From a virus: DNA of 36,623 nucleotides. Of this stretch, positions 1,092-24,988 are shown in pieces. Under the pieces are notes generated by a model, which ran no database searches, was not told where the DNA came from, and saw only the letters and a program-made list of their open reading frames with translations. The stretch lies in IMG/VR virus record IMGVR_UViG_3300025849_000002. One strand, written 5' to 3'. Numbering within the stretch: the stretch's first letter is position 1; each line of letters starts with the position of its first letter. The translations under genes and the position numbers were made by a program.

Positions 1092-1372
1092 TATCTGCAC
1101 TCCAACGCACCAAGCACCTCGACAAGCACATCGGCGCACTGCTGCGGGACAAAGCCAAGCGCCTCAAGAATTACAACGACCGTAGGGGATGGGACGATGC
1201 CTGTGGGGACATCAAGCGGACCAGGGCGTTCGCTAGTCTTTGGAATACCCATTGCTCGACCCGACAACTGCGGAACTTCTATCTTGACGGCGAGACGGCA
1301 TGGCGAGATGCGATCCCCCGGTTTATCAACGAGGTCATCACTGAGAATCACAACCTAGAGAAAGAGCTATGA
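1088..1372 (+). CDS. hypothetical basic protein (94 aa)
   Basis: ATGA overlap with the upstream gene. Lys/Arg-rich. Confidence 0.55.
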   Translation: MISALQRTKHLDKHIGALLRDKAKRLKNYNDRRGWDDACGDIKRTRAFASLWNTHCSTRQLRNFYLDGETAWRDAIPRFINEVITENHNLEKEL

Positions 1373-1521
1373 GTAAACCAAGCCCAATGGGTGAAGCCCT
1401 AGTCAGATGGGGTATACAAAACGTCTCGATATGGCAGATTGCCGACCGCACTATGGGTCGAGAGTACGCGCTGCGTATCTACCCTGAGAGTGCTGAATTC
1501 TTTAAACACATGGAGCAATGA
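1369..1521 (+). CDS. small ORF not in the track (50 aa, MSKPSPMGEALVRWGIQNVSIWQIADRTMGREYALRIYPESAEFFKHMEQ), possible HTH
   Basis: Own translation. ATG 1369 overlaps the upstream TGA and its own TGA overlaps the methyltransferase ATG (ATGA at both ends). It fills an otherwise uncoded gap in a tightly coupled gene chain. Confidence 0.4.
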   Translation: MSKPSPMGEALVRWGIQNVSIWQIADRTMGREYALRIYPESAEFFKHMEQ

Positions 1522-2525
1522 ATCACGCAAGTTTATTCAGCGGTATCGGGGGCTTCGACCTCGCTGCCGAGTGGATGGGGTGGACTAACCTCTTCCATGT
1601 AGAGCGCGACGAGTTCTGTCGCGACATCCTTACACATCATTTCCCAAACTCACAGTCATATGAAGACATCAAACAGTTTAACGGATACCCATGGGCAGGA
1701 CGCATCGACGTTCTCTCTGGAGGCTTTCCTTGTCAGCCGTTCTCCACAGCAGGACAACGTCAAGGGGTTGCCGACGATCGATATCTCTGGCCGGAAATGC
1801 TTAGAGTTGTCCGAGAAGCTCGCCCCACATGGGTCGTGGCAGAGAATGTTCGCGGGCTTACTTCATGGTCAGACGGGATGGTTTTCGACCAGGTGTGCTC
1901 TGATTTGGAAGGTGAAGGCTACAAAGTCTTCCCGACCGTTCTTCCAGCTGCTAGCGTCGCGAACTGCCCCCACAAGCGGGACCGAGTCTGGATTATTGCT
2001 TACGCCCACGGCAGCAGAAACCATCGAGCACCCGGACAAGATGTGGGAACGCAGCCGCAAGGCAGGGTACCGGAATGGCACGAGGTGGTCTTCTCTGTGG
2101 AGTCAAGTCGTTTACGGGGACTTCCTGCCGACCCCGATAGCTTGGGATGGAATAGGTGGTGGGCCGAGGAAAATGAGCGAAGGCAAGGTGACACAGGGCA
2201 AGGGTTACAGCCCTCGACTGAAAGACCTAGCGGCAGCGGGAATGCTTCCGACACCGACGGCACGATGTTGGAATCAAGGCACAGAGAAGGAGCGACCGGA
2301 GGGTCAACCGACTCGCCGATCCGAACTGAATCATCTCGTGGCCCAAGAGGTTGGTCGGCCTTCCCAACTGAATCCCCGCTTTGTGGCGGAGATGATGGGC
2401 TTCCCACCGAATTGGACGGAATCACCTTTCCAAAGTGGAGAAAAGAAAGTGTGAAGGCGTATGGCAATGCCATCGTCCCGCAAGTAGCGTATCAAATCTT
2501 TAAATCAATACAACAACATGGCTGA
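1518..2525 (+). CDS. DNA (cytosine-5) methyltransferase
   Basis: Motifs read in translation: FSGIGG (I), GFPCQPFS (IV), ENV (VI), RDRVWIIA (VIII), GNAIVPQV (X). GGAG lies 5 nt upstream of the ATG. The segment between motifs VIII and X is R/G/S/E-rich and low in complexity. Confidence 0.85.
   Translation: MNHASLFSGIGGFDLAAEWMGWTNLFHVERDEFCRDILTHHFPNSQSYEDIKQFNGYPWAGRIDVLSGGFPCQPFSTAGQRQGVADDRYLWPEMLRVVREARPTWVVAENVRGLTSWSDGMVFDQVCSDLEGEGYKVFPTVLPAASVANCPHKRDRVWIIAYAHGSRNHRAPGQDVGTQPQGRVPEWHEVVFSVESSRLRGLPADPDSLGWNRWWAEENERRQGDTGQGLQPSTERPSGSGNASDTDGTMLESRHREGATGGSTDSPIRTESSRGPRGWSAFPTESPLCGGDDGLPTELDGITFPKWRKESVKAYGNAIVPQVAYQIFKSIQQHG
1660..2454 (+). other. 264-codon overlapping ORF in the +1 register of the methyltransferase gene, carrying LPTPxA repeats and an MMGFPPNWT (motif IX-like) element
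   Basis: Stop-free from 1603 to 2454. Translation shows LLLTPTAAE (1993..2019), FLPTPIAWD, MLPTPTARC and LNPRFVAEMMGFPPNWT (MMGFPPNWT = 2392..2418). Its status as separate gene, frameshift segment or chance is unresolved. Confidence 0.3.
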
Positions 2526-2739
2526 AAACAAGTTTCAACACTACCTCCCGGAGGAGGACGAGCTCATCATCAAGATGGCAAACCAAGGCTGTCCCACTTG
2601 GGAAATAGCTAACGCTCTTGGGCGTACCGAAACCGTTCTATATTACAGACGTACCAAGCTTGGCGTAGACCCTGGTCCGTGGCCCGGAAGCCGTAAGTAT
2701 CAGCGTCTCAAGGCCCTTTCCGAAAAGAACTCTATATAA
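2518..2739 (+). CDS. Myb/SANT-like helix-turn-helix protein (73 aa)
   Basis: The pattern EEDELIIKMANQGCPTWEIANALGRTETVLYYRRTKL fits the W-x-IA-x-GRT Myb/SANT repeat. The ORF overlaps the upstream stop by 8 nt. Confidence 0.5.
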   Translation: MAENKFQHYLPEEDELIIKMANQGCPTWEIANALGRTETVLYYRRTKLGVDPGPWPGSRKYQRLKALSEKNSI

Positions 2740-10131: not shown

Positions 10132-11446
10132 TAAGGGTCATTTGAAGAGAAGAGACTTTGTTGCAGACATAGACCCATACGTTTCCTGCTGCCAAGTCTT
10201 GTGGCTTTATTTCTGTCCAGATTCTAGCCACAGTTCCTTGATTTAATACTCTACCATATTGAGCATAACCGGTTAGATAGAGGCGATTACCCTTTTGCGC
10301 TACCGCTGAGTATAGAGTTTGATTGAGCCCTCCATCTTCCATAGTGACCCGCACCCAGTCTGTGTCTGTGCCAATCTGCACATGACTTCCATTCTTCGCA
10401 TCGGTATTAGTGTTGTCGCCGCGCAAAAAATATTGCCCCTCGCCTGCGAAATACAGTTCGCCACTTGTGTTAATTAGGTAGCTATTAGTTCTACTTAAAG
10501 CAGCGCTCTGCCAATCAGTTTGTAATACACCCCCAACATATCCGATAGCCTGTGGCACTGTTTTGTCTGAAGAGTTGTTTAGACCAAACCTCTCATTACT
10601 ATCATCATCACCCCAACCAAACGCTTCGCCGTTACTGCGAATAGCAATGCATCCATCGTAATCAACATGCACAAAGCTAAAGTTAGAGTTCGTCATGTTG
10701 GTGCTAGGTAAAAGAGTCCAGGTTGTGGTGTTTCCGCTATTGGTTCCTTGACCAGTCTGATACAAGTAATTCCTGCCGCAACTAAAAATTTGATTACCGC
10801 TACCTTTAATCCCCACACTATAGAAGCGGGATTTATGTACCGCAACCCAATCCGAATCAGTTCCTACTTGAGTATAGCTACCGTAACTAGAGGTTTGATT
10901 GCCCGTGCCTGCCTGCCCGTAACTATTAGCACCTAGGTAATACAGCTTGCCGCTATTGATACCCATGGTTCCGTCATACCCCACTGATATGTCGGTCCAC
11001 CCGGTATCAGAATCCCCAACGCCAGTTACCTGCTGGAATGTGGTGGTAGCGTTTCCATCTAAAAAAGAACTGGAATACCCCAGCTCCCATAGCTGTCCGC
11101 TAGCTGTAATTCCGCAAGCGGAATACCTCCCGTAACTAATTTTAATGAAGTCAGACTTACTCTCAGCAGCTATCAGCTGTTCAGCATTAACGTCGCTAGA
11201 GAAGTTGACTACAGGTGTGCTACCATGCTCAAACCTAGGGAGGGTTTCATTACTAATAACGCTACTACTGAGGCTCATGCCACCCATTTTTAATAGCCCT
11301 GATGTGGGTATGGTTTCAGTGTATGTACCAGTACCTGCAACCGGGTCATAGGCCCCGCCGCCACCACCTCCGGACGGAACGTCCTGCCCGTTTATGCTAG
11401 CAATGTCTCCCATTTCAATTCCGTTATATTTAGTGGTGTCCGGCAT
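10118..11446 (-). CDS. RCC1-like beta-propeller repeat protein (putative receptor-binding/tail fibre component)
   Basis: About 7 repeats of roughly 50 aa, of the type G-x-L/I-Y/F-x-x-G-x-N-x-x-GQ-x-G-x-G (GKLYYLGANSYGQAGTGN, NYLYQTGQGTNSG, GEAFGWGDDDSNERFGLNN, GELYFAGEGQYFLRGDN, NRLYLTGYAQYGRVLNQG). TAATG coupling to the 1,444-aa tail protein. Confidence 0.6.
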   Translation of the reverse strand: MPDTTKYNGIEMGDIASINGQDVPSGGGGGGAYDPVAGTGTYTETIPTSGLLKMGGMSLSSSVISNETLPRFEHGSTPVVNFSSDVNAEQLIAAESKSDFIKISYGRYSACGITASGQLWELGYSSSFLDGNATTTFQQVTGVGDSDTGWTDISVGYDGTMGINSGKLYYLGANSYGQAGTGNQTSSYGSYTQVGTDSDWVAVHKSRFYSVGIKGSGNQIFSCGRNYLYQTGQGTNSGNTTTWTLLPSTNMTNSNFSFVHVDYDGCIAIRSNGEAFGWGDDDSNERFGLNNSSDKTVPQAIGYVGGVLQTDWQSAALSRTNSYLINTSGELYFAGEGQYFLRGDNTNTDAKNGSHVQIGTDTDWVRVTMEDGGLNQTLYSAVAQKGNRLYLTGYAQYGRVLNQGTVARIWTEIKPQDLAAGNVWVYVCNKVSSLQMTLIAKY

Positions 11447-14400
11447 TATCCAAGCTCAATAAAGTCGGGTGACGGATCGAGGTAAATAAGCTGTGTGCTA
11501 AGGGAGTATCCTACCGCCCTAACAAAGTCACCTGTCGTATGAGACGATAGGTCATCGGTAAGTTCACCCGCAGTTAGACTGATATAGAGCGGCGCACCTA
11601 CGGTAAAGCTGTTTGAGAACGACCTTATCCCCCGCACAAGCAATCCATCTGTTGTTGGGCTAGTCCCTAGAGCCATACCAAACAGCCCCTTGGTTTGTAT
11701 TTCAGCATCGGCATCGGCTTCCTCCCAAAGACCAGTACCGCTATTATCTCTTAATACATAGACCTTTCCTGCAGTGAGAGTTCCTGTACCAAACTTAACT
11801 ACCTGACCTTCATGCGCTCCAGAGACATACGCAGCCGTTCGAGTCTTTACCTCAAGATAAACGCCGTCTAGTTCATTAGCTGAAGTGATAAAGCCTAGGT
11901 CATTAGTCAAATCAGATGTGGCAGAAGGTATAGCGGTATTACCTTCTAGTGCAGTGCCTGATGTTGTGCCAAAACCAGGGAAGGAAACCTTAGCAGTGTT
12001 AGCCGATACGTCAGTGGCAATGTCTATGCCGTCTACTGTTCCGGTTAAAGTAATATTACCAGTTACACTGAAATTACCAAAGACTGCCGTGTTGCCCTGA
12101 AATAGAACAATTAGAGCTTGGAAAGTAGTGGCTGCTGAAGTGGTTAAGGAAAAAGAAGCTAATGAATCATTAAAGGCATCTGTTGCGCTAGACGCTGCTA
12201 AGTCAGCAAGACCGATATCTGCCGCGCTAGCGACAACTTGGAAGTTGTTGAACTCCGCATTAAACTCTAGCTGTCCATCGGTTTCGGTAGCACCCTGTGT
12301 CCAAGTAAATGCCGTCGTCACTTCGTAGAAACCATCGCTTGCAACAGTACCCTTACAGGCAAACCTATCGCCCACAGCCATTGAGATTGTGCCGCTACCA
12401 ATGCCTGTACCGCCACTAGCGCCATCCAACAATACGCCGTGATACTTAGTCAGCCCGCTAAGTTTAGCGCGTTCAGCGGCAGTAATAGTTGTTGGAGGGT
12501 TGTCTAAGTCGCCGTAATCAATGCCCGAGGTTCCGGCAGTAAATGTGACGGTGCTACTCGCGTTAGTAAAGTTCCAATCCCTCCCATGGTTGACAAGGCT
12601 GTTAATAGTCGTGGTAGGCAGGGGACTAGAGCTACTTCCTGCAACGCTAATTGCCGTGGTCTGCACCTCGCTACCAGCTGTTCCGCTTTGTACGTTAATG
12701 TCAACTTGACCAGGGCTTGTTTCGCTTAGGTCAATGTTGGTACGCGCACCCGCTTGCAGCTTGCCCGTTGTACCAGTTACAGAGACATGGCTTTCGTCAG
12801 TCGCGCTAGTATTTATGTAGACCCCTGCGCCATCGCTAGTGGTGCTATTCTTAAACACGGCTAGTATATCACTGACGCTTGCGCTCGTGCTAGCAATATC
12901 ATTGATTTGCCCCTGAGTTACAAACTTGTGGGCAGCGGTAGAATCGTCTACTTCATCGGAGCTTAGTGGTTCAGAACTAGCGTCAACATCAAAGTCTGCA
13001 ATCTGATCACCATTAGCGTTCATGGTAATCGCGTCAAGCTTTAGCTGATCACTAGCACTAACACTTCCACCGCCTCCGGTAAACCCCGTGATTGTGTCAA
13101 CGCCAGTTCCAGCAGCGTTGACGTTTATGAAATCTAGCTTTGTTACCTGCTCAGGCTTTAATGACCGGCCCAAGAACCTTTCTTCGCCAAATATCCTTTG
13201 GGACCGTACAACCCCACCAGGCACCGGGGGTATACCTCCTCCGTCAAGATTCAGGCCCTTGTTGCCAGTGGTGTTTAGCTCAGTGATTACCCTTGGGTCA
13301 TGCTCAAGCTCTACGCCTGTCATATTGATAATGCCTGACTCCAAATCAATGTCAACCCGCTGCACAATAAGGCGCATACTCTCACGAGTAAAGTCAAAGA
13401 TGTTACGAGGGCTAATGACTCGATTTCTAGAGCTTCCTGGCCTAGGCTTCAGGATTAAATCAAACTGACGCCTTGCTTCACCATAGTAGCTCATCCCTAC
13501 ATTGGCGGCTACCTGTAAAATACCCTTGTTTGCAGCTTGAGTTTCATGTAAAGAATCCCATTGACTAGAATAGCTGCCTGTAGGCCACTCATTGGTGTTG
13601 GGATCGTATACGCCCACATGAAGGTAGCCAAGCGCACCAAAGAGCTCATTGTACCTGCTGCCCAAAAGAGTTGTTCCAAGTAGCAGGGATTCAGAGCCAT
13701 TTGGGTCGTCATCCTGTGAGCTGAACATCGTGTCTTCAGAACGACTTGCATCACCAAGATAGAATTCAAAGTCAGTCCAAGTAGGTGGGTCAATAAGAAC
13801 ATTACCTAACCAACTATAGTTGCTAGATGGGTTAGGCCAGGCCGATACATCAGTATCGTACAGGATAAACCCTTCAGCAGTATACCCCTTTACGGAACAG
13901 TCGATAGTAATACCCACTTGATCTCCTGCGACATCAGGTAGCGCAGGGATTTGCAGGTCTATGTCTGTAGATATAACGGGGTTAGGGTAGTCGTTGCCAG
14001 CTAATCCAATTGGATTGCTTTCTAGCCAGTCAATCAAAATACCGTTTGAACTTTCTCCCATCCACTCTTGATGGGATTCGTTGTTGTAAATGGTTTTGTT
14101 TACGCTGTCAGGCTGTCTCTTTAGAAACAACCCTACAGGGTACGTAGTTACTTCTCCGTTCTCGTCATCATACTCAATAGTCTCTACGGCAGGTTGCGTA
14201 AATTCAGGGTGCAAGACCATGAATTCAAACCGGTCAGCGGAATTAGTGGTCCATTCGGCGTCACTGTGCTGTATGGGATAGTAAAACCTGTTTGTATAAC
14301 TATTAGCACCTACCGCCAAATAAGGGATTTGAATCTCACCCCAATCAGTCTCGTCAGTAAAATCACTAGCGCTCAGTTGAGTGGCGGTCTGTTTTAAATA

Positions 14401-15780
14401 GTAGGAGCCAACCTGAATCTGCATGCTGCAAATTATTTTGGCGCCAATCATTTCGTCAGCCCTACTCACCGGATCACCAATCACATTTAGGCTGTCGTTC
14501 TTTGGGCTCCTTACCCGCATACGGAAAATTCCACGTATACGGAAACCAGTGCCCTGTGGTATTTCTATCTCGGCGTTATTCTTTGGGAAGTCACCTAGCC
14601 GAGCGCCTTCTTGGTCTCCTTGAAAGTCACCAAGGTTTGGGCGCGGAATGCCTGTAATAACCGGGTCACGAAAGTTGGCGTCAATTACGTGGGTTTGTGC
14701 CCGAGGAAACACCCTTGTGCTACCGCCATTGCGATGCACATACGTCACCGTAGAAGCTGGCGGAAGAACAGACTCCTTGCTGCCGACTAATATGTCGTAG
14801 TTTGAGTCAGAGTCAATGTAACTGCCCTGATTAATTTCCGTAGGGCCGTAGTTGCTCGTGATACCCGGACTAGAAAGATTATTTTTACTAAGACCGTATT
14901 GATACTTCCCGTAGAACTCAGGGTCTGCTAAGTAGGGCAGTGCACTGACGCAGTAAAACCTACCTTCACTCATTGACATAGTCAATTGGAAAGCAATCAT
15001 AATATCCTTTAGGACATCTAGACAACTTAGGGTCTTTCTCTTTACTAGAAAGAGGTTCTCAAAAATGTTAGGTCTTTCGGCTTCAGTTAAAAACGTACCG
15101 CTATTGCATCCAGTTCTTGACAATGGTCCTACATCGTATCCAACTTGATTGGCATTGATGTCATGATTGTCATGATAGATATCGGTAATGTAAGAGAACA
15201 CCACATCAGGTGTACCAAACAACGGCAGTGTGGGCAGGTACTGAAAGCACCGAGCCATATGCGTTTGCAGCGTAGCATGGTCATCATATTGAGCTCCATT
15301 AGGAGCACGGTATGACTGTTCAGCGAGCAGACTTAAACCATCGACGGCTGTAAAAGAAACCGCATATGGGTCAATGCCGTAATCGACCTGAACAGACTGT
15401 GGCGCAACCACGCCTCTCCATTCAACTATCTCATTTAGATAGGTTACACCACCGAGCTCTACTTCATCAATAAAACCATACGTAACACCGATATTGAACT
15501 CGGTAGTTTCGCGTATAGCCTCTAGTATTTTGGCTTGATCATCGTTCTGAATAATCAGGTTTACCTTTAAGCTGCTAGACTTAATTGGGTCAAACACATT
15601 GTCAGTCCTGCCTTCGTACTGGAGGTTTAACCCACCACTAGCAATGGTTAACTGCTTCGGATCATTAGAAGAAAACCCCCATCCAAAAGCAGTGTTCTCT
15701 AGGTCATATACATAAAGGAACCTTTGGAACTCCCGATTAGGCTGCTTCCACTTTGCGTAATACCTTTTTGTTACTGCCAT
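11446..15780 (-). CDS. large multidomain distal-tail/baseplate/fibre protein (1,444 aa)
   Basis: Immediately downstream of the tape measure gene (TAATG). Its size and position are those of Dit/Tal fusions. Gly/Thr/Ser-rich fibre-like C-terminal third. Confidence 0.75.
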   Translation of the reverse strand: MAVTKRYYAKWKQPNREFQRFLYVYDLENTAFGWGFSSNDPKQLTIASGGLNLQYEGRTDNVFDPIKSSSLKVNLIIQNDDQAKILEAIRETTEFNIGVTYGFIDEVELGGVTYLNEIVEWRGVVAPQSVQVDYGIDPYAVSFTAVDGLSLLAEQSYRAPNGAQYDDHATLQTHMARCFQYLPTLPLFGTPDVVFSYITDIYHDNHDINANQVGYDVGPLSRTGCNSGTFLTEAERPNIFENLFLVKRKTLSCLDVLKDIMIAFQLTMSMSEGRFYCVSALPYLADPEFYGKYQYGLSKNNLSSPGITSNYGPTEINQGSYIDSDSNYDILVGSKESVLPPASTVTYVHRNGGSTRVFPRAQTHVIDANFRDPVITGIPRPNLGDFQGDQEGARLGDFPKNNAEIEIPQGTGFRIRGIFRMRVRSPKNDSLNVIGDPVSRADEMIGAKIICSMQIQVGSYYLKQTATQLSASDFTDETDWGEIQIPYLAVGANSYTNRFYYPIQHSDAEWTTNSADRFEFMVLHPEFTQPAVETIEYDDENGEVTTYPVGLFLKRQPDSVNKTIYNNESHQEWMGESSNGILIDWLESNPIGLAGNDYPNPVISTDIDLQIPALPDVAGDQVGITIDCSVKGYTAEGFILYDTDVSAWPNPSSNYSWLGNVLIDPPTWTDFEFYLGDASRSEDTMFSSQDDDPNGSESLLLGTTLLGSRYNELFGALGYLHVGVYDPNTNEWPTGSYSSQWDSLHETQAANKGILQVAANVGMSYYGEARRQFDLILKPRPGSSRNRVISPRNIFDFTRESMRLIVQRVDIDLESGIINMTGVELEHDPRVITELNTTGNKGLNLDGGGIPPVPGGVVRSQRIFGEERFLGRSLKPEQVTKLDFINVNAAGTGVDTITGFTGGGGSVSASDQLKLDAITMNANGDQIADFDVDASSEPLSSDEVDDSTAAHKFVTQGQINDIASTSASVSDILAVFKNSTTSDGAGVYINTSATDESHVSVTGTTGKLQAGARTNIDLSETSPGQVDINVQSGTAGSEVQTTAISVAGSSSSPLPTTTINSLVNHGRDWNFTNASSTVTFTAGTSGIDYGDLDNPPTTITAAERAKLSGLTKYHGVLLDGASGGTGIGSGTISMAVGDRFACKGTVASDGFYEVTTAFTWTQGATETDGQLEFNAEFNNFQVVASAADIGLADLAASSATDAFNDSLASFSLTTSAATTFQALIVLFQGNTAVFGNFSVTGNITLTGTVDGIDIATDVSANTAKVSFPGFGTTSGTALEGNTAIPSATSDLTNDLGFITSANELDGVYLEVKTRTAAYVSGAHEGQVVKFGTGTLTAGKVYVLRDNSGTGLWEEADADAEIQTKGLFGMALGTSPTTDGLLVRGIRSFSNSFTVGAPLYISLTAGELTDDLSSHTTGDFVRAVGYSLSTQLIYLDPSPDFIELG

Positions 15781-22146: not shown

Positions 22147-23066
22147 CAGTATTGCCTTACACTAGATACCAAGCGCCGGACGCCCTCCTTTACCTCCGTG
22201 GTAATACCGCCTACTATTTCTGCCTCGCGCATGTTGTAGTAGTGACCAATCAACAATAAGGCCGCCTGGACATACTGCTTCGGTAGAGAACCTAAAGCGG
22301 TACCGCAGCTGACGCGCAACCTGAAACTCATTTTCTCCCCTCCCTCACTAAGCTGCTGGCATAGCTCACTGTAATCAAACTGACTTGGGTACTGGTCAGT
22401 CATGGCAGTATGCTTGAATAAAGTGCCGTTGTTTATCGCGAAGTAGGAGCTACTCGTATGCGTATGGTCACCAGTGACTGTCCCGTCAATACGGTATAGT
22501 CCCGCCTGAAGGTTTTGAAACGTATGGACTGTATAGCCGCCCGAGCCGCTAGCTGTATCTACCTGAACATACTGCTCAGTATGCCAATTATAGCGGCTTA
22601 AAGTATGTGTGATAGCCGAAGGTGTGTCGCTAGTGTCAGTGACTAATTGCTGCACATCAACGGAAGTATTAAAGACATCAACGTCAACAACCCTGTTTAC
22701 TGCGGTACCGCCTGTAAAAGAGAGTTGAACAAAGTGGTGACCGTGGACCTCATCGTCGGGCACTACCGGAATGTGCTTCGTAAATACACCATTTTCAAAA
22801 TACTCCAAAGACAATACAGAAGTAATGCCCTGAAGCTTTTGAATGCGAAAAGGTGCCCTGAACTCAGAGTAGTCCAGGAGCACCTTCGCAGTAGATAGAC
22901 CGAGAACTCGGTCGGAAAGATTTTGCAGATAGTCTACCGCAGCATCGCGATAGATATCTAGCAGGTCATCTTCAGATTCATCAATCGCACGAACGTGAGC
23001 CCGCATGGTAACGGAGCTCACGAACGTGTCGTCTATAGGCGATGTGCGATTGACTTCATAGAACAT
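22146..23066 (-). CDS. gp6-like head-tail connector (adaptor) with a large internal insertion
   Basis: The N-terminus (DDLLDIYRDAAVDYLQNLSDRVL) and C-terminus (AALLLIGHYYNMREA...VRRLVSSVRQY) look like a roughly 100-aa adaptor, split by about 170 extra residues. Confidence 0.5.
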   Translation of the reverse strand: MFYEVNRTSPIDDTFVSSVTMRAHVRAIDESEDDLLDIYRDAAVDYLQNLSDRVLGLSTAKVLLDYSEFRAPFRIQKLQGITSVLSLEYFENGVFTKHIPVVPDDEVHGHHFVQLSFTGGTAVNRVVDVDVFNTSVDVQQLVTDTSDTPSAITHTLSRYNWHTEQYVQVDTASGSGGYTVHTFQNLQAGLYRIDGTVTGDHTHTSSSYFAINNGTLFKHTAMTDQYPSQFDYSELCQQLSEGGEKMSFRLRVSCGTALGSLPKQYVQAALLLIGHYYNMREAEIVGGITTEVKEGVRRLVSSVRQY

Positions 23067-24988
23067 TAGTCGCGGTAACCGGTGAAACCGTAGCCACCGA
23101 AGTTAGTTCCGGTTCGGTTCGTCATGTCCGTCAGGGTCTTAAAGGACCGGTACACGTTGGCGATGATGCGAACGACCCCGCTATCGGCGTCAGTGTAAGG
23201 GTCAATAATCAAATTTAAACCACCCCACCTACATTGTACGGCGCGGGTAGCGTCCATCATGTACAGGTGACCGGCGTCAACAGAGCTATTGATGACCGTC
23301 GGGTACTCGAGGACGGATTGGCGGGTACTTGGGGAAGAGGCAAACAGCAGACCGGAACCGGCGTCGAGAGAGAGCTGACGATTAGTACGGTAAGCGGTAG
23401 GGCTAGTGAGAACGCGAATGTTCTGATTGTCTACGTTGTCAATCATCAAATCCTCCTCCATATGAAGGGCGTTCTGAGTTGCGGCGGCGAATTGGGCAAT
23501 CGTTCCACCAGCGCGGTGATCAGCAGCTGCGTCAATAGCAGAGACAACAGTGGTGTTGAACTTTGCGTCCACAGCCTTGCGAATCTCAGAAGCAACAAAA
23601 GCGCCGAGATCGTCAGAGGTCTGAGCCAAGAGCTGCTCGGTCACCTGAACGTGAGCGGAAACCCGGGTTGGGGTCAGCTCAATGGCGCTGAACGTCATGT
23701 TGCCCACTGCCTGGGGTACGCTCTCATTTGGGGTAGCCGTTCCGGGAGGCTTGTCCGCAACTTGGAAGACAACATTACCGCTGACGCCCGTGACCGTGCG
23801 CACACCCAGCTGCGTGGCGACGTCGTTCGGGTGCAAGAACTCGGTGAACCCCTGGTCGGCTACACCAATCTTACCACCAAACGCGTCAGCCGTGGAGCCT
23901 ACCGTCGCGGTTCCGAGGGCGTCAACACGCTTCTCCGTAAGAAAACTCGGGACGCTGATGCCACCGGCGATGTTCACCTTAGAGTCGGTAAACTCTGATC
24001 GAGCCTCTTGGTTCATCTCTGCTTCAAGGCCAGAGAGCTTACCTTGTGCGGCCTCACGAAGGGCCTTTCCAAAGCTGTAACGCTGTTGGACATTTGACTG
24101 TTGGTCGCCCCGGCTTTGTACGATAGCCGGAGCATTCTTTTCGTTCTCCATGGTATGGGAATTTGAATTATTAGAATTGCGAGCCTCCGGCTCAGGGATT
24201 ATTTCTTCTAGTGCGTAAGGATGTGGAAGGATGGCGGGGTCAATGAGCTGGTCAACGCGCTCTTCTTCCTCCTCCTCTTCTTCCTCGTCCTCCATCTTTT
24301 CCTCTTTCTCTTCCTCCTCGGCTTCGGATTTCTCCTCTTTCTCTTCCTCCTCGTCCTTGGCGCCATACGCCTTCTCTTCCTTCTCCTCCTCCTCTTCTTC
24401 GGCGCGAACCTCCTCTTCCTCAATCAGTGCCACATCCTCATTAGCGAGAGCAGTCTCCATGCTGCGAAGGCCGACATCAGTGGTTGGGTAGGCACCCTGG
24501 GTTGTGGGAGAAACGTCGAACAAAAGATCTACTTCTTTAATTGTACGCAAATTAACACCGTCATCCCTGCGTTCCCACTCATCATCACGGACAGTAAAAC
24601 CAAAGGAGCTAGTGCTTACGTTGCCCATGCGAATGTTCTCTACGAGATCTTTTGCATAGGATTGATTTCCAATCTCAAAACGGTACTTGAGCCCACGTTT
24701 ATCGACACTAAGCTCTAAGCCTCGCCCGACACGCGCCAAGGGTTGATTGATGTCGTGATTGAATAGCGCAACAGTGTTGTCCATCCGAGCACCTTTAAAT
24801 GCACCAGGGGCAACCCGTTCGGCGAACTGCCCACCGATGACCGTCTCATCGTTAAATACGGCAGCGTAGCCCTCAATGACAGGATTCTTGTCGGCAGCCT
24901 CACGGACTTCTACAGATCCTGTTAGAATTCGAATTTCTTTCTTGTCTGACATGACTTTACTTTTTTCCTTCGACTTTATTAATGACAC
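23066..24988 (-). CDS. prohead protease (HK97/S78-like) fused to HK97-fold major capsid protein through a poly-Glu/Lys linker
   Basis: N-terminal IEGYAAVFN...FNHD...STSSFGF is protease-like. An approximately 55-aa EEEEKEEK-type linker lies near 24230..24420. The C-terminal ~370 aa are capsid-like (..LNLIIDPYTDADSGVVRIIANVY..). One uninterrupted ORF. Confidence 0.8.
   Translation of the reverse strand: MSLIKSKEKSKVMSDKKEIRILTGSVEVREAADKNPVIEGYAAVFNDETVIGGQFAERVAPGAFKGARMDNTVALFNHDINQPLARVGRGLELSVDKRGLKYRFEIGNQSYAKDLVENIRMGNVSTSSFGFTVRDDEWERRDDGVNLRTIKEVDLLFDVSPTTQGAYPTTDVGLRSMETALANEDVALIEEEEVRAEEEEEEKEEKAYGAKDEEEEKEEKSEAEEEEKEEKMEDEEEEEEEEERVDQLIDPAILPHPYALEEIIPEPEARNSNNSNSHTMENEKNAPAIVQSRGDQQSNVQQRYSFGKALREAAQGKLSGLEAEMNQEARSEFTDSKVNIAGGISVPSFLTEKRVDALGTATVGSTADAFGGKIGVADQGFTEFLHPNDVATQLGVRTVTGVSGNVVFQVADKPPGTATPNESVPQAVGNMTFSAIELTPTRVSAHVQVTEQLLAQTSDDLGAFVASEIRKAVDAKFNTTVVSAIDAAADHRAGGTIAQFAAATQNALHMEEDLMIDNVDNQNIRVLTSPTAYRTNRQLSLDAGSGLLFASSPSTRQSVLEYPTVINSSVDAGHLYMMDATRAVQCRWGGLNLIIDPYTDADSGVVRIIANVYRSFKTLTDMTNRTGTNFGGYGFTGYRD

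Follow-up and report, generated by a model that had tools for sequence, protein, structure and literature searches.

The locus described here raises the question of how the motifs of one enzyme can be distributed over two reading frames of the same DNA. The window, a viral stretch of 36,623 nt (IMG/VR record IMGVR_UViG_3300025849_000002), holds on its plus strand a candidate DNA (cytosine-5) methyltransferase (C5-MTase) locus with two long open reading frames (ORFs). The alpha gene (frame 1, 1518..2525) starts with ATG and encodes 335 aa. The beta gene (frame 2, the +1 register, 1660..2454), also starting with ATG, encodes 264 aa and lies entirely inside alpha on the same strand. The third sense frame of the locus has many stops. 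An earlier note on this DNA had drawn the two overlapping ORFs, and we found both exactly at these positions. It had offered three explanations: two compensating shifts that join the frames, either programmed or due to assembly indels; an overprinted gene for a trans-acting subunit with the target-recognition domain (TRD) and motif IX; or a complete frame-1 protein with a relic in frame 2. We consider it highly probable that the locus is a nested alpha/beta C5-MTase like M.EcoHK31I, and the layout is conserved over thousands of relatives.

The motifs reported for frame 1 were all located in the alpha chain, namely motif I (FSGIGG, 1536-1553), motif IV (GFPCQPFS, 1722-1745), motif VI (ENV, 1842-1850), motif VIII (RDRVWIIA, 1977-2000), and motif X (GNAIVPQV, 2463-2486), and are invariant or nearly so in 94 relatives. 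The low-complexity middle was also as described. It forms a 117-aa linker rich in G/S/R/E/P (2001..2351, aa 162-278; for example, the peptide GLPADPDSLGWNR), which is open but not conserved. Further downstream, the alpha C-terminal segment LDGITFPKWRKESVKAYGNAIVPQV (2412-2486) contains motif X, is under frame-1 selection only, and aligns to motif X of M.HhaI; the conserved C-terminal pattern of alpha in the family reads W..FPT..P.C ... LDGITF.KWR.ES.KAYGNAIVPQV. As a suggested profile search bore out, PF00145 matched only the first half of the frame-1 product (155.8 bits against a cut-off of 22, E 2.5e-45; aa 1-195 on profile positions 1-193 of 324), as did TIGR00675 (129.2 bits, cut-off 100.65), while the frame1-frame2-frame1 chimera covered PF00145 from end to end (1-323 of 324) with a better E-value than frame 1 alone. 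The PHROGs family phrog_363 matched alpha with E 7e-67. The TRD and motif IX that stand between motifs VIII and X are absent from the alpha chain, where aa 162-278 are of low complexity, unconserved, and predicted at a predicted local distance difference test score (pLDDT) of 29-48.

Frame 2 has a different content. Its leader (beta aa 1-57, within 1660-1830) is unconstrained, and aa 1-39 were predicted at a pLDDT of about 30. A conserved N-domain of about 55 aa, GSW..F..LL.G..W.S.RC.L.WK..T...R..FQL (within 1831..2000), lies over alpha motifs VI-VIII. The middle of beta consists of tandem, mutually homologous modules of about 40 aa, each opening with LPTP, and the window has three of them. 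Module 1 (LLLTPTAAE...YGDF, 1993..2124) has the highest pLDDT in beta (81-88). In the beta alignment, L156, P157, T158, and P159 of module 2 (LPTPIAWDG...AAAGM, 2125..2244) and T198 and P199 of module 3 (LPTPTARCWNQG...EVGRP, 2245..2361) are nearly invariant. They are followed by the motif IX-like element SQLNPRFVAEMMGFPPNWT (2362..2418), with L237, P239, E244, M245, M246, and F248 invariant, and by the tail ESPFQSGEKKV with the stop (2419..2454), which is unselected in frame 2, its L/S and E/x changes being synonymous in frame 1. Three LPTP modules and a motif IX-like element were what the earlier note had read here, and the translated sequence of beta includes MLPTPTAR and FVAEMMGFPPNWTESPFQSGEK. 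A separate PHROGs family, phrog_1008, matched beta (E 1e-20), so that this database keeps one family per frame. Beta is covered by no Pfam or NCBIfam model, and none of its 2168 homologs has a Pfam domain.

The two-frame appearance might come from assembly or sequencing indels or from a recently broken pseudogene. Two compensating 1-nt indels would give this picture in a single sequence, and metagenome contigs do contain isolated cases of a 1-nt frame change (P0001, L151, and L162; L and P numbers denote our related loci and proteins). The closest relatives, L246-L248, come from independent assemblies of other samples and have the identical layout, with 93.7% nucleotide identity, 64 substitutions, and 0 indels over the 1008-nt gene. 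Cultured-phage genomes in GenBank also carry it, among them Bacteroides phages BKO1-TP3 and BS-TP4 and phages of Paenibacillus and Lacticaseibacillus, as do hundreds of bacterial genomes. Assembly indels as the source of the two shifts are thus excluded by the independent assembly, and for an artefact or a broken pseudogene in general we see next to no probability.

We then considered how widely the layout is conserved. The earlier note mentioned database proteins of the GGDDGLP..LDGITFPKWR and MMGFP..WTE.PFQ.GE types and took them for the same DNA read in two frames, possibly as a property of the whole family. It was right on both counts. Among the 120 best matches of the chimera, 115 were of the frame-1 type (...FPT.AP.CGGDDGLP.RLDGITFPKWRRESIKAYGNAIVPQV) and 5 of the frame-2 type or hybrid (...MMGFP..WTE.PFQSGE), and none of the 120 had MGFP and motif X in one ORF. 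The nested layout is also that of the 120 best alpha matches and the 120 best beta matches. When 82 related loci were translated in three frames, frame 1 was nearly everywhere open and of low complexity, frame 2 open and protein-like over the same stretch, and frame 3 rich in stops. The number of modules in these relatives (L001-L082) ranged from 1 to 4, with 2 in 22 loci, 3 in 42, and 4 in 12; some beta representatives of 610-660 aa were matched by the profile in 5-6 stretches. Single-linkage clustering of the modules merged nearly all of them into one cluster and gave no usable typing.

The first set of 80 loci had been picked with the full frame-1 protein, which could bias it toward an open frame 1; two further samples, one drawn with an N-terminal-only query and one with frame-2-only patterns, served as a control. 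Among viral loci picked by the N-terminal domain alone, 72 of 75 had frame 1 open to motif X together with MMGFP in frame 2. Among bacterial genome loci picked by frame-2 patterns alone, beta was covered by an alpha ORF of the -1 register in at least 69 of 77. The bacterial carriers were mostly Bacteroidota (Alistipes putredinis, Pedobacter, Flavobacterium, Dyadobacter, and Chitinophaga). Against a library clustered at 50% identity, the beta profile matched 24,809 representatives with an E-value of 1e-3 or lower, 9,284 of them at E <= 1e-10.

Exceptions to the layout are isolated 1-nt variants or decayed copies. L172, L110, and L151 turned out to be 1-nt variants or disrupted. Decay is seen in some chromosomal copies: in L166 (a Flagellimonas metagenome-assembled genome, MAG), a nonsense codon interrupts alpha in the zone where both frames are constrained, with beta still open, and in L172 (Arachidicoccus rhizosphaerae) the alpha C-terminus lacks motif X. 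Among metagenome contigs, L162 (P0004) continues from the N-terminal domain into the beta part in a single frame and keeps motif X in the other, P0001 is a hybrid that passes from frame 1 to frame 2 in mid-gene, and L151 has the beta modules fused to the alpha C-terminus and MMGYP in the third frame; these three may be mutations or sequencing errors. L235, L183, and L096 at first appeared as exceptions and were rejected as such, being regular-expression misses with a normal layout. Relatives of beta were also seen in MAGs labelled Chlamydiia, Burkholderiaceae, Sphingomonadaceae, Phycisphaerales, and Saccharibacteria (L167, L174, L182, L227, L241, and L245), which could reflect binning contamination or horizontal spread.

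If the frame-1 protein were the whole enzyme, the frame-2 motifs would be the decaying relic of an ancestral reading. Frame 1 is indeed a complete ORF, the one called in most records (115 of the 120 best matches), and its two ends are strongly conserved. We compared the two frames by counting nonsynonymous (N) and synonymous (S) single-difference codons between pairs of relatives, in zones defined in nt relative to motif VIII or X. From the gene start to -300 before motif VIII, the N/S ratio was 0.18 in frame 1 and 9.1 in frame 2, and from -300 to -141 it was 0.25 and 6.1. Around motif VIII (-141 to +24) the two ratios approached each other (0.54 and 1.92). Over the LPTP stretch they were reversed, 12.2 in frame 1 against 0.21 in frame 2, with only 3 usable pairs. 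From -111 to -48 before motif X they were 2.18 and 0.44, and around motif X (-48 to +48) frame 1 was again the constrained one (0.19 against 7.8).

The comparison of the window with L246 followed the same course. Given as S/N, the differences were 7/0 in frame 1 and 0/7 in frame 2 at 1518-1659, 13/4 and 4/13 at 1660-1830, 3/7 and 6/4 at 1831-2000, 6/15 and 17/4 at 2001-2351, and 7/0 and 0/7 at 2419-2525. With the LPTP stretch constrained in frame 2 and not in frame 1, frame 2 stop-free and ATG-started throughout the family, 9284 representatives of the beta profile at E <= 1e-10, and the frame-1 middle predicted to be disordered, the frame-2 motifs are no relic as the earlier note had allowed, and a complete frame-1 enzyme is very improbable.

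Selection at this locus is therefore frame-specific, and in two zones it is double. The first part of the gene (1518..1830, motifs I-IV) is selected in frame 1 only, although from 1660 it also encodes the beta leader. Zone B (1831..2000) is selected in both frames, alpha motifs VI-VIII lying over the beta N-domain, and motif VIII, which overlaps the frame-2 GLL codons at the beginning of the first LPTP module, is where frame 2 takes over from frame 1 as the selected frame. In zone D (2352..2418), the alpha sequence W..FPT..P.C-GGDDGLP lies over beta GKTSQLNP.FV.EMMGFP..WT, and both are again selected. A check for purifying selection in homologs, which the earlier note had suggested, thus found both frames constrained in these two zones. 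The second frame was open over the extent given there, but its amino-acid selection begins at about 1831 and overlaps motifs VI-VIII, and is not limited to the stretch after motif VIII.

Per-base entropy over 76-77 non-identical loci shows the handover directly, the variable codon position moving from the wobble position of one frame to that of the other. In zone 1831-2000, the entropy of the frame-1 wobble position drops from 1.2-1.5 to 0.6, and several wobble bases of frame-1 Leu, Phe, and Ala codons are invariant in 64-65 of 65 loci; these bases fix frame-2 residues of W.S.RC.LTWK..T...R....L. At 2352-2418, frame-2 sites with fourfold degeneracy do not vary where their base is required for the F, P, P, and C of frame 1, and the D/N, L/F/I, and P/S variants of frame-1 GGDDGLP are just those that wobble changes in frame-2 E-M-M-G-F-P give. 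From about 48 nt before GNA, the variation is back at position 3 of frame 1.

Stop codons gave an independent view of the unconserved linker. Over the frame-2-coded stretch (61-190 codons), frame 1 contained 0 stops in all 77 non-identical relatives, against 248 expected from synonymous permutation of the frame-2 codons or 496 expected from the codon usage of flanking genes. This argues that the frame-1 middle is translated. Over the N-terminal domain, 296 stops were expected in frame 2 and 154 were observed; they all lie toward the 5' end, in 65 loci no later than 305 nt upstream of motif VIII. The frame-3 control had 660 stops against 636 expected.

The start of beta is conserved as well. 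Of 67 loci, 61 have a frame-2 ORF whose ATG lies 290 nt or more upstream of motif VIII and which stays open through that motif, where 4.6 would be expected; the remaining 6 start at -281. ATG 1660 of the window is the equivalent of the commonest start position. Called beta proteins have the N-terminus M.TS in common, with W.S.RC at residue 71-73 in 74 of 108, and in most representatives the N-terminus falls at the same profile position. In Paenibacillus phage Diva, a Shine-Dalgarno-like GGGAGG, which an arginine codon CGG helps to form, lies 12 nt upstream of the nested ATG, and in Lacticaseibacillus phage R23.9 only a weak purine run precedes the beta start; as signs of a ribosome-binding site before beta, these are no more than suggestive.

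The two frames could also be joined into one canonical chain by two programmed shifts, a +1 shift right after motif VIII and a -1 shift between IX and X, with the frame-1 middle and the upstream part of frame 2 never translated. The end-to-end fit of the chimera to PF00145 speaks for such a chain, as do its better E-value, the IX-X spacing, which aligns with M.HhaI, and the rare natural variant P0004/L162 with its N-terminal domain fused in frame to the frame-2 part; in that variant, however, motif X is still in the other frame. Programmed frameshift genes such as dnaX, prfB, and the phage tail chaperone pair G/GT have a conserved slip site, and their zero frame need not stay open far downstream. 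Like them, the window locus has a conserved protein sequence that runs on in a different frame of one strand, but its family has no conserved slip site and both frames are open and selected.

Neither per-base entropy nor the sequence listing of relatives revealed a slippery sequence that is conserved where the frame changes. Both junctions vary in sequence, the first for example between TGG TTT GTT GCC, TGG ATT ATT GCT, and TGG TTC GTC GCT TAC AAT GCT ..., and in L058, L061, L077, and L078 this first junction has moved by 3-5 codons. The A-rich GGAGAAAAGAAAG, which the earlier note had pointed out where frame 1 resumes, falls in a variable codon of the window and is not conserved. The position of the frame-2 stop also varies, lying -11, +10, +22, or +46 nt from the G of GNA. 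Moreover, the abandoned frames stay constrained past the supposed shifts: frame 1 has 0 stops in 77/77 loci where 248-496 are expected, frame 2 has an ATG some 300 nt before the first shift, is open from there, and is under amino-acid selection over about 140 nt upstream of that shift, and frame-1 W..FPT..P.C is selected upstream of the supposed back-shift. Since a two-shift fusion needs none of the open frame-1 middle, the ATG-started and conserved upstream part of frame 2, and the frame-1 conservation before the second junction, it is disfavored, and the evidence as a whole favors two separately translated chains; we regard programmed shifts as the sole source of the product as quite unlikely.

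A milder form, in which separate alpha and beta chains are accompanied by low-level shifting that yields some fused protein, is slightly less unlikely and takes something away from a purely two-chain enzyme. The three-frame evidence demands separate products and does not forbid a minor fusion, and in-frame fusion variants occur in nature. On the other side, no slip site is conserved and the selection pattern needs no fused product.

We modeled both chains with AlphaFold2 (AF2). In the alpha model, aa 1-165 were confident (pLDDT mostly 80-90), the linker (aa 174-288) stood at 29-48, and the C-terminal helices at 66-73. Foldseek matched this model to the large domains of the prophage CP-933R enzyme (PDB 3g7u), M.HhaI, and M.HaeIII (E about 1e-12, 167-211 columns), and the predicted structure thus shows that alpha has the MTase large-domain fold. 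These enzymes share with alpha the fold and motifs I, IV, VI, VIII, and X. They differ in being one chain in one frame, and their small domains have no detectable sequence similarity to beta except for the short IX element. Reading the window frames in the order 1-2-1 restores the M.HhaI-type order of VIII, variable region, IX, and X, and the IX-X region of the chimera aligns weakly to M.HhaI 269-314. From this weak alignment and the strong conservation in the family, we take the beta element as a putative motif IX.

Multispecific C5-MTases of Bacillus phages (SPR, phi3T, and rho11s) are orphan enzymes with tandem recognition modules that vary in number and kind. They are single polypeptides in one frame, whereas the tandem modules of the window are on a separate frame. 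Homologs with an explicit annotation are in Paenibacillus larvae phages, where GenBank records label the inner ORF 'g49 internal gene' or 'g55 internal gene'. In Diva (L163; gp49/gp50) the nested pair lies at 1023-2075 and 1207-1911, and Shelly (L164; 55/56) has another. The beta of these phages is homologous to that of the window (tblastn, 27-29% identity over 80-95% of the query), is nested in the +1 register of a DNA-cytosine methyltransferase gene, and has the same order of elements, with a leader, a W..C.LTWK domain, W.TP.A modules, and NP.WVE.LMGFP.GWT, over an alpha middle of low complexity. They differ in the Firmicutes host, GGGAGG before the beta start, the motif X LGNAVNPVQV, and the alpha segment before motif X. 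Two comparative papers on P. larvae phages do not discuss the nested gene.

Two naturally split C5-MTases have been described. M.EcoHK31I (E. coli HK31, YGGCCR; Lee, Kam and Shaw 1995) has, according to PMC2836561 and PMC3404938, a beta gene wholly inside alpha in another frame of the same strand; alpha carries motifs I-VIII together with X and a predicted TRD, beta has motif IX, and both chains are needed. The N-terminal part of its beta is important for pairing with alpha, and beta can be started at internal Met codons (PMC2836561). The window locus agrees with M.EcoHK31I in the nested same-strand beta and in having I-VIII and X on alpha and IX on beta. It differs in other respects: the TRD of M.EcoHK31I was assigned to alpha, whereas in the window the alpha region between VIII and X is unconserved, of low complexity, and predicted to be disordered, with modules at the TRD position in beta; the window beta has an additional conserved N-domain overprinted on alpha motifs VI-VIII; and the window locus lies among the early genes of a phage.

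In M.AquI (Karreman and de Waard 1990), the subunits are encoded consecutively, and the small one holds the distal variable region with motifs IX and X, according to PMC3404938. Like the window locus, it is a naturally split C5-MTase with the break in the variable region and motif IX on the small subunit. In M.AquI, however, X is with IX on the small subunit, while in the window X is in the ORF of I-VIII, beta is nested, and the beta stop lies before or within the motif X codons. The overprinted trans-acting subunit put forward in the earlier note therefore fits the evidence, but its precedent is M.EcoHK31I and not M.AquI. These two were the only systems we found in the literature that bear on a family-wide nested layout, a weak negative given that subscription journals were thinly covered.

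The kind of system is thus already known, the M.EcoHK31I precedent being 30 years old. New with respect to the published description are the modules of beta at the TRD position, the alpha variable region as an unconstrained linker, the extra N-domain of beta, and the very large family in phages and Bacteroidota.

Taken together, we propose that two nested, overlapping genes of the same strand encode the two subunits of a DNA (cytosine-5) methyltransferase at this locus. Alpha would be the S-adenosylmethionine-binding, catalytic large domain (motifs I-VIII), its 117-aa linker translated, free of sequence constraint, and probably disordered, and its short conserved C-terminal segment would bring motif X back to the large domain. 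Beta would most likely run from ATG 1660 to the stop at 2454 and comprise a leader of about 57 aa, an N-domain of about 55 aa, three LPTP modules of about 40 aa, and the motif IX-like element. In M.HhaI-type enzymes, the chain exits the large domain after motif VIII and re-enters it between IX and X. Because the frame switches of the window, just after VIII and between IX and X, match these crossings between large and small domain, beta may be viewed as the detached small domain and alpha as the large domain with a loop in its stead. The LPTP modules would then occupy the place that the TRD has in single-chain enzymes. By analogy with M.EcoHK31I, we infer that beta is initiated independently inside the alpha message and that the two chains assemble non-covalently, with beta supplying sequence recognition.

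Several points count against this proposal. The translation of beta and its assembly with alpha are argued from analogy, and the LPTP modules are assigned as recognition domains from their position. The likeness to M.EcoHK31I is one of layout and motif placement, taken from published descriptions; in a tblastn search of beta against plasmids, only Bacteroides and Paenibacillus were matched and no E. coli. The motif IX-like element aligned to M.HhaI 269-287 (GKTRKLHPRECARVMGYP) with 7 bits only and added about 16 bits to the PF00145 match of the chimera, so its likeness to canonical motif IX is weak. The AF2 model of beta from a 95-sequence alignment was poor (pLDDT 58, predicted template modeling score 0.30), and Foldseek and PDB profile searches returned only noise for it. 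Such a model fits a subunit that folds on its partner or on DNA, and is no proof of one. No recognizable Shine-Dalgarno sequence precedes ATG 1660 in the window or the corresponding start in Bacteroidota-type relatives; this is to be expected for Bacteroidota-type initiation and is uninformative. Finally, with beta aa 1-57 free of amino-acid constraint, the true start could lie further downstream.

The source of the window is a tailed phage, with PHROG matches for a terminase, a portal, a protease-capsid fusion, a tape measure, and a primase. The methyltransferase locus lies within a plus-strand cluster of small, tightly packed early genes. The alpha ATG (1518-1521) shares the tetranucleotide ATGA with the stop of the upstream ORF (1369..1521), and the ATG of the downstream regulator-like gene (2518..2739, phrog_323; transcriptional regulator) lies inside the last alpha codons (2518-2525). 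Overlapping junctions at both ends of alpha suggest a translationally coupled operon. Antisense to the dual-coded stretch, on the minus strand, an ATG-started ORF of 157 aa (2000..2473) brings the long open frames over this DNA to three; it probably arose incidentally from the avoidance of stops in the two sense frames. Elsewhere on the minus strand, a 640-aa ORF (23066..24988) matches a head maturation protease PHROG (aa 8-244) and a major head protein PHROG (aa 57-611) and appears to be a fused protease-capsid gene, and a 1444-aa ORF (11446..15780) with no PHROG match at E <= 1e-5 adjoins the tape measure gene. In the Bacteroides phages BKO1-TP3 (L001, 2883-3788) and BS-TP4 (L002, 2112-2984), a phosphoadenosine phosphosulfate reductase gene lies two genes 3' of the nested methyltransferase and is adjoined by a putative N6-adenine methyltransferase or 'demethylase'.

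For annotation, the consequence is direct. Most records call frame 1 only, as an ordinary DNA cytosine methyltransferase, and beta is missed or hypothetical; because the frame-2 product is missed, a specificity prediction from the annotated protein would use the meaningless linker. To our knowledge, few long same-strand overlaps in bacteria and phages have been proven to be under purifying selection in both frames. With an overlap of about 800 nt conserved over phages of Bacteroidota and Firmicutes, this case provides natural replicates in the thousands for work on the sharing of one sequence by two frames. A natural split between a catalytic large domain and a modular recognition subunit is also the design wanted for targeted methylation, for which M.EcoHK31I has been used (PMC2836561).

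The enzyme is probably a phage orphan methylase that shields phage DNA from host restriction, and the number and kind of beta modules probably set its target site or sites. A variable number of cassettes on such an enzyme suggests a cheap escape from several restriction systems. We give about even chances to a broader proposal, that the locus is one member of a very large, essentially undescribed class of which M.EcoHK31I was an early isolated example, in which the 'Dcm-like' MTases of phages and Bacteroidota would be heterodimers from nested pairs of about 800 nt, with about 230 nt doubly selected and the recognition domain on a detachable subunit built of cassettes of about 40 aa. Most specialists would not expect the scale, the double selection over about 230 nt, a recognition subunit that is modular and detachable, or mis-annotation this widespread. 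If the broader proposal is true, specificity could evolve by gain, loss, or swap of cassettes, and the sole constraint on the catalytic subunit there would be 'no stop codons' in a disordered loop.

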